The notes under the pieces were generated by a model. That model saw nothing but the letters and a program-made list of their open reading frames with translations. It was not told the DNA's origin and did no database searches. Shown piece after piece: positions 2,692 to 5,237 of a stretch of DNA of 27,562 bases. Position 1 is the stretch's first letter, and every line of letters starts with the position of its first letter. The stretch covers positions 1 to 27,562 of the forward strand of contig JAZNQW010000171.1 in assembly GCA_045590435.1 (NCBI GenBank), read 5' to 3'. A program made the position numbers and the translations under genes. This DNA comes from Alphaproteobacteria bacterium (GTDB lineage Bacteria > Pseudomonadota > Alphaproteobacteria > RF32 > CAG-239).

Positions 2692-3507
2692 ATGTTGAAA
2701 CATGCTTATCAATTATTAGCTTCCGAATATCAAAAATGTTGTCGAATTGTGCAGGGAGATGAATATTTAACACTTTATGCAAATGAAAAATATCGCCATT
2801 CGTTACAGGTGATGGGGGCCGCCAATTATTTGCTGCAACACATCAGTGAGGTGCAAGGCATATCGGCGGAAAAACTTGAAATTATTAAAACTGCAGTGCT
2901 TTTGCACGATATCGGTCGATTTACGGAAATTGCCCTTCATTTGAAATCACAAAAATGTGATCATGGGGTGGTAGGTGCGGAATTTTTGCAATCTTTGTCG
3001 CAATTTAATGAGATAAGGATTTGGTTACCTGTTAGACATCATGGGCATTTAATTGAGGAGTTATATGCCGACGAACAATTCAGACAAATAGAGAATAAGG
3101 CATTACAAAAGGAAGTTGAGCATATTTGTTTCATTATTCGTGATGCCGATAAAATAGCTAATATGAATATGTTGACGCACGAGGAGAATATTTTACCGTT
3201 ATTTTTGGGTATTAAAAAATATAATCCGCAAGTTGACGGAGTTCTTTCTCCGGAAGTTTTACAGGAGGCGTTTGAAGATCAAACAATTACACGCAGTTAT
3301 TTAAAAACAGCGGCTGATTTCAGTGTGTGGTATATATCATGGTTCAAGGATATAAATTATCAGATAGCGATTGATTTCTGTAAAAAACTTGATATTTTAC
3401 CGAATTTATTGAAAATTTTGGATAAATACTGTATGGATGAAAAATTCAAGCATGACTTTAATGCACATATATGGAAATATGCGGAAGAGCGTAAGTATTT
3501 ACCATAA
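2692..3507 (+). CDS. HD-domain metal-dependent phosphohydrolase
   Basis: Motifs RHSLQV, LLHDIGR, DHG, RHH, RDADKIAN. ATG at 2692 follows GGGGG; an alternative in-frame ATG lies at 2647. Confidence 0.85.
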   Translation: MLKHAYQLLASEYQKCCRIVQGDEYLTLYANEKYRHSLQVMGAANYLLQHISEVQGISAEKLEIIKTAVLLHDIGRFTEIALHLKSQKCDHGVVGAEFLQSLSQFNEIRIWLPVRHHGHLIEELYADEQFRQIENKALQKEVEHICFIIRDADKIANMNMLTHEENILPLFLGIKKYNPQVDGVLSPEVLQEAFEDQTITRSYLKTAADFSVWYISWFKDINYQIAIDFCKKLDILPNLLKILDKYCMDEKFKHDFNAHIWKYAEERKYLP

Positions 3508-3540
3508 TTAAGAGCACAAAAAGGTAATCAGAGAGACTAT

Positions 3541-3966
3541 TTAATGACCGAATTGGTGTGCAAATTCCAATTTTGAAATGTGATTAATGGTTTGAATTTT
3601 TGTATTTTGCAAAATAAGTGGAAGCTCAACGGAAACGAAAGTGCTGCGTGGATGGGCATTTTGTACAAATGCTGTAACGTTGCCGGATGCGGCCAGAATA
3701 AAACGTTTAGATGCAATAGCCCAAATTGCCATTATCTCCGCCGGCGGATTTTGGTTGCCGGTTTCCAGCCCCATAGCCATAAGTCGTTGGCCGCATGTTG
3801 TATTGTCCAACATATAAGATTCGGGGTGAGTTTGCATATATTGCAGAGCCGCGCGCTTATTTTCATCTGTCGGTTGATAGCTGATGCTGTAAAGCACAAC
3901 AGTGTCAGGTGGAGTGACAACGTCAGCGGTTAAGGCAATTTGCCGCGCTTGTTCTAATTTATTCAT
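3541..3966 (-). CDS. Stand-alone ADP-ribosyl cyclase/CD38-like NAD+ glycohydrolase-fold protein (predicted)
   Basis: VVLYS, YMLDNTTCG, IWAIASKRFILAASGNV and STFVSVEL parallel CD38 ILLWS, FTLEDTLLG, FWKTVSRRFAEAACDVV and STFGSVEV in the same order. Start overlaps the HAD gene stop. Confidence 0.7.
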   Translation of the reverse strand: MNKLEQARQIALTADVVTPPDTVVLYSISYQPTDENKRAALQYMQTHPESYMLDNTTCGQRLMAMGLETGNQNPPAEIMAIWAIASKRFILAASGNVTAFVQNAHPRSTFVSVELPLILQNTKIQTINHISKLEFAHQFGH

Positions 3967-4639
3967 AAGTTTTTCCTTTTGTCGGTGTCATGGTTAAAAA
4001 AGGAGTTATGGCTTTAGACAACGTATTTTCAGCGCTGACCAATGAACCGTTCATACCGATTTTTTGTGCAGATTCAATATTCAGCAGAACATCATCAAAT
4101 AACATGGTTTCTTGAGGCTTAATATGAAAGCGGCGGCAAAAAAGACTAAGACCGTCTTCACTTTGTTTAGGGTGAAAATAACCATTGTGTAAAGAAGCCG
4201 TAATATCAAAAACTTGAATATTGCTTCGTTCAATTTCCGATAAAGAGCGATTGAAAAGTCGATTCGTAATTTGAGCCAAATGTGGGCGACTGTTGTTGCT
4301 TAGAATGGCTACATTATACTTTTGTGCCATATTTTGCAGATTTTGCCAGAGCGGTTTGTTCGGTTGAATACGACTGTAATCGATATTGGCCGTCATCTTT
4401 TCGCAGAAATGGTCAAAACTGTAGTTTTTATAACGGCAAATTTCCAAAATGTAATTAAACAACCCACGGTGATTATCGGCGACAGTGGCTTGCGATATTT
4501 CATTCTGCTCATCACCGCTGATTGCCAAATCTTCCCGATAAACCTTTTTCATAGCATCAATAATTTCTTTGGTAGGCAAAGCCGAAATCGGATACAGAAC
4601 ACCGTCACAATCAAAAATCAGGTTTTTAATTTCAGGCAT
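3959..4639 (-). CDS. HAD-superfamily hydrolase, pyrimidine 5'-nucleotidase (SDT1)-like
   Basis: Motif I FDCDGVLY, motif II LSNNS, motif III Lys (HPKQ), motif IV LFDDVLLNIESAQKIGM. ATG at 4639 overlaps the upstream stop by 8 nt. Confidence 0.85.
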   Translation of the reverse strand: MPEIKNLIFDCDGVLYPISALPTKEIIDAMKKVYREDLAISGDEQNEISQATVADNHRGLFNYILEICRYKNYSFDHFCEKMTANIDYSRIQPNKPLWQNLQNMAQKYNVAILSNNSRPHLAQITNRLFNRSLSEIERSNIQVFDITASLHNGYFHPKQSEDGLSLFCRRFHIKPQETMLFDDVLLNIESAQKIGMNGSLVSAENTLSKAITPFLTMTPTKGKTYE

Positions 4640-5237
4640 TAGATGCCTCGGCATCGGCCGTTGCCGCATCCGTATTTTTTTTCATTAACGGACGTCTGCC
4701 ACGGCGCGGTTTAGCCACCGATTCGTCAGTTGGCAGTTGTTCTTGCGGGGTTGAAACTTCAACCAAAGTAAATCCGCGTCGACGCATTCTCGGTTTATTT
4801 GTTTGATTGTCGGCAGATGCGGCAACTTCTTCTGTTGAAGCATTCTGTTTGGCATTCTGAGGAGTAGCTTCTGCAGGAGCCGCCGCCTCTGTTTCAACCA
4901 GCCCGTTATTAACCGGTGTTTCCTCGGTAGGGGATTGCTCTTTATTATCAGTGCCGCTTGCCGTGCGATTGTCACGATTTTGATTTTTACGCTCATTAAT
5001 TTCCGTTACGATCTTGCGATAATGCTCGGCATATTGACGGAACACTTCCATTTCCACATAATTACCATTGCTGTGTGCTTCTTTAGCCAGTTCATTATAT
5101 TTTTTTATTAAATCAAGTGCGGTGCCGCTAAACTTTCCGGCGGAACAAACACTGTCAAATTTATAATTCAATGAATAAATAGTATTGTTACTGTTGTTAT
5201 TGTTATGAAACTTTTGCCCGTTATTAATTTTTCTCAT
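4632..5237 (-). CDS. DUF4167-family protein with disordered C-terminal tail
   Basis: GTALDLIKKYNELAKEAHSNGNYVEMEVFRQYAEHYRKI resembles the alphaproteobacterial DUF4167 core (GTAQQIxEKYxxLARDAxxSGDxVxAENYxQHAEHY), followed by an A/E/T-rich tail. Confidence 0.75.
   Translation of the reverse strand: MRKINNGQKFHNNNNSNNTIYSLNYKFDSVCSAGKFSGTALDLIKKYNELAKEAHSNGNYVEMEVFRQYAEHYRKIVTEINERKNQNRDNRTASGTDNKEQSPTEETPVNNGLVETEAAAPAEATPQNAKQNASTEEVAASADNQTNKPRMRRRGFTLVEVSTPQEQLPTDESVAKPRRGRRPLMKKNTDAATADAEASNA

Follow-up and report, generated by a model that had tools for sequence, protein, structure and literature searches.

The 27,562-nucleotide contig JAZNQW010000171.1 (assembly GCA_045590435.1; hereafter the window) comes from an Alphaproteobacteria bacterium of GTDB order RF32, family CAG-239, and carries a small open reading frame (ORF) whose 141-residue product has, by profile searches and a structural model, a real ADP-ribosyl cyclase (ARC) fold, that of CD38 and Tac1. 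The identity of this product is the real point of interest of the locus. Within one family of small-genome gut and rumen Alphaproteobacteria the ARC gene is near-core, single-copy and inherited vertically; it is under strong purifying selection, and its putative active-site residues are conserved. We consider it probable that it encodes a cytosolic, non-toxin glycohydrolase or cyclase acting on pyridine nucleotides, sometimes paired with an SDT1-like 5'-nucleotidase of the HAD superfamily, at the end of an old gene string. A sequence-only reading of the window had proposed a dedicated signal module of four genes, encoding a DUF4167 protein, the HAD phosphatase, the ARC protein and an HD-domain phosphohydrolase; comparison with related genomes speaks against such a unit, as the HD gene is near ARC in none of the 95 distinct loci compared.

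Fold and family of the 141-residue protein

Despite a Pfam score of only 15.5 bits, the label 'ARC-like' that the sequence-only reading gave to the 141-residue protein is borne out by both profile and fold searches. The single sequence found no match in the PDB with phmmer. A profile from alignment A1 (27 ARC sequences with 43 invariant columns) matched ARC enzymes there with a best E-value of 5.6e-4, and with the broader family profile A2 all 39 chains with E<=1 are ARC enzymes, including porcine CD38 (4.1e-6), ARCtox (3.9e-4), Tac1 (3.9e-3) and Aplysia cyclase (0.011). An AlphaFold2 model on A1 reached a predicted local distance difference test score (pLDDT) of 91.1 and a predicted template modelling score (pTM) of 0.83. 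Its top Foldseek matches in the PDB are all CD38, CD157-type and Aplysia cyclases or two bacterial ARC toxin structures, with a probability of 1.0; E-values are 1e-5 for porcine CD38, 2e-5 for Pantoea ARCtox (9ro8) and 1.5e-4 for Tac1 (9ouf), and 59 matches have E<=1e-3. VIA-align, a Foldseek-independent search of 48,161 chains, placed 9ro8 first (Z 11.2, root-mean-square deviation 3.1 A over 117 residues), followed by Aplysia cyclase 3zwm (Z 8.1), CD157 1isf (Z 7.8) and porcine CD38 5bnf (Z 7.7). The next folds, at Z 5.8–5.3, are TIR domains, the RDTND NADase domain (8ka2, Z 5.5) and nucleoside 2-deoxyribosyltransferases.

The protein has 159 close homologues; among the 120 matches listed, these are 136–161 amino acids (aa) long with 60–86% identity, and the few that carry names are from uncultured Alphaproteobacteria. 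When A1 was searched against 1.84 billion representative sequences, 566 proteins were recovered at E<=1e-3, many of them long and ending in this domain. Thirty distant homologues were scanned, of which eight match PF02267 (three above its cut-off), and others contain RHS, RTX, SLH, peptidoglycan-binding or ankyrin parts.

Putative active-site residues

Residues W82, S86 and E114 align with W189, S193 and E226 of CD38 in HMMER alignments, and all three are invariant in the 27 sequences. CD38 E226 and its Tac1 counterpart E573 are described as the essential catalytic Glu (PMC12356396), and E114 is, by alignment, the candidate catalytic Glu of the 141-residue protein. D54 aligns with the Glu of the 'TLEST/LEDT' motif, corresponding to Tac1 E516 and CD38 E146; this position is Asp in all 27 sequences of A1, and D, E, G, A, N or L across the wider stand-alone family. 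According to the account given in PMC12356396, the second Glu of the CD38/Tac1 active site promotes hydrolysis of the cyclic ADP-ribose (cADPR) intermediate, and an Ala at this position in Nac1 goes with release of cADPR.

Distribution and selection

Profile A2 finds the ARC gene in 201 of 249 sampled genomes, covering 18 of the 23 genera of the window's family, mostly as one copy. The genomes of the family are 1.0–2.0 Mb in size and are gut, rumen and faecal metagenome-assembled genomes (MAGs). Within the window's genus 37 of 40 genomes carry the gene, compared with 23 of 54 in genus g18. It was found neither in the one genome from the order's other family nor in 16 genomes from other families of the class. 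The median ratio of nonsynonymous to synonymous substitution rates (dN/dS) is 0.065 by the Nei–Gojobori method (range 0.018–0.174; 33 pairs with 0.05<dS<2, drawn from 47 equal-length pairs of 75–99% identity, with pairs of unequal length dropped).

The ARC core fills the entire 141-aa ORF, with no N-terminal trafficking or secretion domain; residues 3–13 form a polar helix of the fold in the model and not a signal peptide. No downstream neighbour is common to the clades across the 95 loci, no immunity family (Imm74 or other) appears in Pfam scans of sampled neighbours, some neighbours being unscanned, and PADLOC reports nothing for ARC, HAD, DUF4167 or a HAD-ARC fusion. Neither is there patchy horizontal spread; the gene is mostly single copy and inherited vertically, and neighbour types follow the protein tree. 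The 141-residue protein thus looks like a housekeeping enzyme and not a toxin. We note second, partial ARC-like matches in two genomes of the genus (G012:C1:14058-14249 and G016:C19:12844-12948), one of them with an internal stop, and these are probably gene remnants.

Gene order around ARC

Two sets of loci were compared, 22 from the window's genus with about 6 kb on each side, and the best 80 of 112 confirmed matches from GTDB species representatives. The sets share seven loci, and the union, counted after removing duplicates, contains 95 distinct loci. Recurrent neighbours in Pfam and NCBIfam scans are a class-II aminoacyl-tRNA synthetase, an unknown gene of ~213 aa, an RpoH-like sigma factor, PrmC, DUF4167, a YaeI-like calcineurin-type metallophosphoesterase (MPE, ~385 aa), HAD and ClpB, and the consensus order is prmC > DUF4167 > (MPE) > (HAD) > (clpB) > ARC. 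The genes found directly upstream of ARC are shown in Table 2. Where clpB is that gene, the gap to ARC ranges from a few to about 50 nt, judged by alignment ends. On a quick maximum-likelihood tree of the ARC protein (97 rows) the neighbour types cluster by clade, with 13 changes versus 44.7 in shuffles. This is most simply explained by vertical inheritance, the middle genes having been lost or moved repeatedly.

Table 2. Genes lying directly upstream of ARC in the two sets of loci and in their union.
Upstream gene	Species-representative set (80 loci)	Window's genus (22 loci)	Union (95 loci)
ClpB	48	0	48
HAD, window type	15	9	21
HAD fusion	2	0	2
DUF4167	10	12	18
MPE	3	0	3
Different HAD	0	1	1
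Contig edge	1	0	1
Other	1	0	1

In the window's genome prmC is on another contig, where it is followed by a convergent gene, and no MPE orthologue was found there, only paralogues of 25–31% identity. A role for the MPE as an ADP-ribose or cADPR diphosphatase was considered and dropped because its best match is YaeI (78.8 bits, below the cut-off) and it has no PDB match.

The DUF4167 protein has a conserved N-terminal domain and a low-complexity tail. It had been listed in the proposed module, but its gene holds the slot after prmC across the family, adjoining prmC downstream in most loci, and there are ARC genes with no DUF4167 in view: behind ClpB in 13 loci (some cut by a contig end), in genome G016, and in the fusions described below. 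Its link to ARC looks positional. The DUF4167-(HAD)-ARC block is still joined after loss of the prmC link in three genomes, the window's included, which fits a promoter between prmC and DUF4167. In the literature that mentions the term, DUF4167 is absent from titles and abstracts.

The HAD gene and HAD-ARC fusions

The HAD protein had been called SDT1-like in the sequence-only reading, and this holds as a resemblance but not as an assignment; its best NCBIfam match is indeed TIGR01993 (pyrimidine 5'-nucleotidase), although the score of 50.6 bits falls short of the 142.9 required of an equivalog. Among solved structures the nearest is the Arabidopsis xanthosine monophosphate (XMP) phosphatase 7ef6 (E 9.3e-5). 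The catalytic motifs DxD, Lys and DD are intact, with D10, D12, K158, D182 and D183 invariant in 21 orthologues. Yeast Sdt1 dephosphorylates nicotinamide mononucleotide (NMN) and nicotinic acid mononucleotide. Phm8 is reported as an NMN-related factor (PMC13191266).

Conservation of HAD-ARC adjacency in related genomes, which the earlier reading had put forward as a check, is found in part. A window-type HAD adjoins ARC in 21 of the 95 loci, a HAD of another type in one and a fused HAD in two, whereas ClpB, DUF4167 or the MPE is adjacent in 69. The loci with a window-type HAD beside ARC belong to two or more clades that stand well apart in the ARC tree. In four loci ClpB sits between HAD and ARC, and in G006 the DUF4167 > HAD pair lacks a following ARC. 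In the genus, an orthologue of the window's HAD was found in only 12 of 25 genomes.

Two genomes of genus g18 (G078 and G145) carry a single 369-aa HAD-ARC ORF, free of unread bases (N), downstream of a 4-alpha-glucanotransferase gene. The HAD half of this fusion matches TIGR01993 best among families, at 114.5 bits and again below 142.9. A protein search recovered one more fused cluster (359 aa, 87% identical), and the other 19 matches are stand-alone HADs of ~210 aa. An apparent fusion in G022 (a 427-aa frame) was not counted because the frame crosses unread bases. In G016 the string is GNAT > HD > HAD > ARC, with an HD and a HAD that show no significant similarity to those of the window; the same genome also keeps a window-type DUF4167 > HAD pair on another contig, without ARC. 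The HAD-ARC link appears real and recurrent, but facultative.

The HD gene

The HD gene, convergent with ARC, had been placed in the proposed module, and conservation of that adjacency in related genomes was the test that the sequence-only reading itself had named. A window-type HD gene lies within 6 kb of ARC in 0 of the 95 loci. Orthologues (42–54% identity) are present in 22 of 24 other genomes of the genus, with only a paralogue-level match in a 23rd, and they are always away from ARC, for example 63 kb off on the same contig in G015. Among nine loci fetched from relatives, seven have recA as the divergent neighbour of HD, as in the window. Because HD is elsewhere in the relatives, the convergence of ARC and HD is specific to the window's genome. 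PADLOC returns only generic Cas3/Cas10 HD-domain similarity for the HD protein. The HD gene is a neighbour only and lies outside the unit.

Nicotinamide adenine dinucleotide (NAD) metabolism in the family

Genes of NAD metabolism were searched in five genomes of the genus that are 99–100% complete (G000, G011, G004, G013 and G020). Nicotinate phosphoribosyltransferase (NAPRTase) and a full NAD synthase match were obtained in G020 only, the other genomes giving partial PP-loop matches of 25–30 bits for the synthase. Quinolinate phosphoribosyltransferase, PnuC and CinA/PncC were found in none of the five, NAD kinase gave sub-threshold matches only, and the NAD-dependent DNA ligase LigA is present in all five. 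An NMNAT-sized cytidylyltransferase, PncB and NadE were not detected in four of these near-complete genomes. G020 has a cluster (L125, G020:C15:12500-17500) of a YgjV-like gene (L125:155-517) and genes for an NMNAT-like cytidylyltransferase, PncA, PncB and NadE, and the last four proteins have no tblastn match in G000 at E<=1e-3. Across the family NAPRTase occurs in 79 of 251 genomes; in genus g23 it is found in 0 of 26 genomes and ARC in 24 of 26, and in genus g20 both occur in 11 of 12.

By known routes, most members of the family thus seem able neither to synthesise nor to recycle NAD, and this looks like widespread NAD auxotrophy with uptake of imported pyridine nucleotides. Because the known routes seem to be missing while LigA yields NMN, we propose that ARC and HAD may take part in the turnover of NMN or NAD. 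As for CD38, it is reported to perform base exchange on NMN (PMC11903787), and the titles of PDB entries 3dzj and 4ogw describe it with NMN bound.

Three further observations concern this context. In eight checked genomes of the genus with HAD beside ARC (G000, G002, G004, G011, G013, G014, G018 and G022) there is no NAPRTase match, seven HAD-less genomes (G001, G003, G005, G007, G009, G017 and G020) have NAPRTase, and G175 has both HAD and NAPRTase; this pattern represents few independent events, because most of the HAD-less genomes form one clade. In four loci of the genus (L017, L021, L022 and L023) the next gene downstream of ARC, on the same strand, encodes a YgjV-family inner-membrane protein (PF10688). 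A PnuC-type transporter function for YgjV-like proteins was supported neither by Pfam at E<=5 nor by a literature search, and a YgjV role in the transport of pyridine compounds is only a guess. Finally, a phosphorylase of the window ('PunA') had been suggested to process a product of the proposed module, but nothing ties it to ARC; it is 15 kb away in a separate nucleoside-catabolism cluster. That string (18845-21413, minus strand) consists of genes for a cytidine deaminase, this phosphorylase of the PNP/UDP family and, as third gene, a pyrimidine-nucleoside phosphorylase (Table 1).

Relationship to known ARC proteins

The characterisation of bacterial ARC (CD38-like) enzymes dates only from 2025. 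One study places them exclusively in secreted toxins (PMC12605009), and the Tox-ARC domain with its Imm74 immunity protein was described in polymorphic toxins by Zhang et al. 2012 (PMC3482391). A different class, of a small number of 'non-toxic' orphans, is represented by Nac1, the 'non-toxic ADP-ribosyl cyclase' of Actinophytocola oryzae (Colautti, Kim and Whitney, J Biol Chem 2025, PMC12356396), whose authors state that Nac-class gene neighbourhoods 'do not offer clues'.

The 141-residue protein fits the Nac idea, yet differs from Nac1 itself. Like Nac1, it is a small bacterial ARC fold outside polymorphic-toxin systems, has no immunity gene and keeps the catalytic Glu. As described, however, Nac1 carries a Sec signal peptide and has the second Glu replaced by Ala, whereas the window protein has neither, with Asp54 instead; also unlike Nac1 by its description, the window ARC is near-core and vertically inherited across a family, in a fixed chromosomal slot and with a recurrent or fused HAD. 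With Tac1 (9OUF) and Pantoea ARCtox (9RO8) it shares the minimal two-lobed catalytic core of ~130–150 residues, and the W...S and E-L-P motifs align. Those proteins are described as C-terminal domains of type VII and type VI secretion system (T7SS/T6SS) effectors with cognate immunity proteins and patchy horizontal spread (PMC12356396, PMC12605009); in contrast, the window ARC stands alone, with no conserved partner gene and a dN/dS of about 0.07. CD38, CD157 and Aplysia cyclase (PF02267) share with it the fold and the Glu/Trp/Ser triad, although the window ARC is about half the size of the metazoan group, is cytosolic and is without the extra N-lobe helices or disulfides. The phosphatase resembles SDT1/Phm8-type HADs in that TIGR01993 is the best match for both the window HAD and the fusion's HAD half, with motifs intact, and departs from the equivalogs of that family in that both proteins score under its cut-off. 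Among the titles and abstract openings listed by our searches on bacterial ARC, we found no cytosolic ARC paired with a HAD. The locus is a tractable case for the orphan ARC class, being cytosolic, constrained and family-wide, with a fixed slot and a recurrent, occasionally fused phosphatase partner.

Explanations of the locus

The reading that we favour, a cytosolic pyridine-nucleotide glycohydrolase or cyclase of housekeeping type, takes the fold, active-site conservation, distribution, synteny and purifying selection from the comparisons above, and its substrate, product and roles from homology. The ancestral string would have been prmC > DUF4167 > (MPE) > (HAD) > (clpB) > ARC, with middle genes dropped or relocated in the various lineages. 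In the window's genome a pared-down DUF4167 > HAD > ARC block would have left prmC and landed beside the recA-HD pair, and the adjacency of ARC and HD would, because of this landing, be a rearrangement of one genome. The ARC enzyme may split NAD(P)+ or NMN between nicotinamide and ribose at a rate that the cell tolerates; E114 would be the catalytic Glu, W82 would stack on the pyridine ring, and the products would be nicotinamide together with ADP-ribose or cADPR, or with ribose-5-phosphate. The HAD, where present or fused, may take the 5'-phosphate off a mononucleotide substrate or product. In cells where LigA generates NMN, the two enzymes together would serve pyridine-nucleotide turnover or disposal.

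Several points weigh against this reading. The substrate and product attributed to ARC are taken solely from homology, and minimal ARC toxins of equal size hydrolyse NAD(P)+ very fast. ARC is dispensable, since it was not found in 31 of 54 genomes of g18 and in 3 of 40 of the window's genus. The HAD is not an obligatory 'eraser', because in 8 of 24 relatives in the genus that carry ARC no HAD orthologue was found, and four more have only a paralogue of 30% identity. HAD presence flips at least five times inside the window's genus on the ARC tree, stand-alone HADs of the fusion type and ARC are mostly in different genomes of g18, and it is ClpB, not HAD, that is directly upstream of ARC in 48 of the 95 loci. 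Synteny inside one bacterial family is weak evidence for joint function because it is largely shared descent. The spread of NAPRTase across genera does not follow that of ARC, and the absences of NAD genes come from hidden Markov model searches of MAGs, in which a search for the TLC transporter missed its control genomes.

A more specific form of this reading, which we put forward tentatively and rate as distinctly less probable than the general one, gives the CD38-fold enzyme one of two tasks: a housekeeping NMN/NAD nucleosidase or base-exchange step that, alongside an SDT1-type 5'-nucleotidase to which it is fused in some species, clears or re-routes the NMN made by LigA, or the first endogenous cytosolic source of cADPR in bacteria. 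Either, if true, would give bacterial ARC enzymes a physiological, non-weapon role. An enzyme acting on NMN or NAD would bear on NAD management in reduced-genome gut symbionts, and on whether cADPR has a role inside bacteria.

ARC could alternatively be a stand-alone 'Nac-type' cyclase that makes cADPR or ADP-ribose as a stress signal inside the cell, co-expressed with the heat-shock chaperone ClpB and independent of HAD. The position of ClpB directly upstream with short gaps in those 48 loci and the presence of rpoH in the same string favour this, as does the existence of non-toxic bacterial ARCs that release cADPR (PMC12356396). However, the window's genus has moved ClpB away while ARC stayed behind DUF4167 or HAD, a sensor for the signal is not evident, and Asp54 keeps an acidic side chain, which in CD38 and Tac1 favours full hydrolysis; we regard this explanation as unlikely.

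A little less likely again is that the fold has been kept for a substrate other than a pyridine nucleotide, the protein cleaving the N-glycoside of some other nucleotide or nucleoside, or binding without catalysis. In the structure search nucleoside 2-deoxyribosyltransferases and TIR domains rank next after the ARC enzymes, pyrimidine 5'-nucleotidase and XMP phosphatase are the best matches of the partner HADs, and position 54 varies in the wider stand-alone family, all of which would be compatible with such a change. Against it, the ARC nicotinamide-ribose site keeps its defining Glu, Trp and Ser without variation, and the ARC fold match is far ahead of all others (Z 11.2 versus <=5.8).

We consider improbable the nucleotide-messenger module of DUF4167, HAD, ARC and HD, in which ARC would make a cADPR-like signal that HAD and HD erase. 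Its appeal lies in the Asp, rather than Glu, at the second active-site position, where Ala in Nac1 goes with cADPR release (PMC12356396), in the retention of the ARC fold with its catalytic residues, in the GNAT > HD > HAD > ARC string of G016 and in the metallophosphoesterase of the ancestral string. Yet the window's HD type is absent from the vicinity of ARC in all 95 loci and has recA as its conserved partner, the HD and HAD of G016 are not homologous to those of the window, no receptor or effector gene is conserved nearby, and ClpB lies in the middle of the ancestral order. HAD phosphomonoesterases are, moreover, not expected to open cADPR.

That ARC is a domesticated or remnant polymorphic-toxin domain, or an NADase held in check by a neighbour as in a toxin-antitoxin pair, is very improbable: the closest solved structure is a T6SS ARC toxin and many distant homologues are C-terminal domains of long RHS, RTX, SLH or peptidoglycan-binding proteins, but the protein lacks a trafficking domain, Pfam scans of sampled neighbours show neither Imm74 nor a conserved downstream gene, and the gene is single copy and vertical in 18 of 23 genera, with a dN/dS of 0.065 and no PADLOC match.

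Layout of the locus and other features of the window

The ORF map and the coordinates given for the DUF4167, HAD, ARC and HD genes were confirmed (Table 1). So were the 8-nt overlaps, ATGCCTGA between DUF4167 and HAD (4632-4639) and ATGAATAA between HAD and ARC (3959-3966), where the HAD stop lies over the ARC start. The HD gene and ARC are convergent with 33 bp between their stops at 3507 and 3541 and no hairpin, as the sequence-only reading had it; this gap folds like shuffles on both strands (z -0.12 and -0.37), and a terminator scan calls none there. A longer start at 4669 is possible for HAD, although its orthologues align from residue 4–7 of the short form; orthologues of HD align from residue 1–2 given the 2692 start.

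Table 1. Features of the window discussed in the text; positions are those of the 27,562-nucleotide stretch.
Feature	Coordinates	Strand	Remarks
435-aa open-ended ORF	1-1308	plus	no family match
recA	1390-2418	minus	conserved divergent partner of the HD gene
HD-domain phosphohydrolase gene	2692-3507	plus	Pfam HD, 40.6 bits (cut-off 22)
141-aa ARC-fold ORF	3541-3966	minus	Pfam PF02267, 15.5 bits (cut-off 25)
HAD-superfamily phosphatase gene	3959-4639	minus	above cut-off for PF00702 and PF13419
DUF4167 gene	4632-5237	minus	Pfam PF13763, 55.1 bits (cut-off 25)
Terminator-like hairpin in leader	5259-5272	minus	5-bp stem, 4-nt loop, T run
Proposed promoter TTGCAG-17-TATATA	5349-5321	minus	3/6 and 4/6 consensus matches; weak
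Intrinsic-terminator-like hairpin	5432-5404	minus	12-bp stem and T run; ends upstream 229-aa gene
229-aa ORF upstream of the DUF4167 unit	5452-6141	minus	from ORF map
315-aa ORF	6238-7185	minus	DEAD domain only
ftsH	7082-8947		3' end overlapped by 315-aa ORF
clpB	16232-18790	plus	12 kb from ARC here; directly upstream of ARC in sister genera
Pyrimidine-nucleoside phosphorylase gene	18845-20152	minus	nucleoside-catabolism string, third gene
PNP/UDP-family phosphorylase gene ('PunA')	20156-21016	minus	nucleoside-catabolism string
Cytidine deaminase gene	20946-21413	minus	nucleoside-catabolism string
1004-aa protein gene	21802-24816	minus	ankyrin and MORN repeats

The promoter that had been proposed in front of DUF4167 does not appear in the list from a consensus scan, which finds six promoter-like sites in 2300-5600 compared with a mean of 11.6 in shuffles. 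Because the scan misses this promoter and finds fewer sites than shuffles, the proposed promoter is no more than chance. The terminator hairpin at 5432-5404 closes the upstream 229-aa gene, and DUF4167, HAD and ARC therefore begin a separate unit. No Rfam family reaches its gathering score in the window, and weak sub-threshold matches to small RNAs lie around this terminator. Between the proposed promoter and the start codon of DUF4167, the leader contains a smaller terminator-like hairpin (Table 1), which could be an attenuator or a chance match.

The 229-aa ORF is unmatched in Pfam, NCBIfam and PADLOC and has no counterpart among the 22 same-genus loci. Beyond it, the 315-aa ORF holds only the first (DEAD) domain of a DEAD-box RNA helicase and an acidic tail; matches to RhlE/CshA models span residues 43–245 only and the helicase C-terminal domain is not present, so that the ORF, which as called overlaps the 3' end of ftsH by 104 nt, is either a truncated helicase or a half-helicase. 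The open-ended 435-aa ORF at the start of the window has a low-complexity tail rich in Asn, Gly and Ser. The 1004-aa protein contains many ankyrin repeats and one MORN repeat, and is a eukaryote-like repeat protein.

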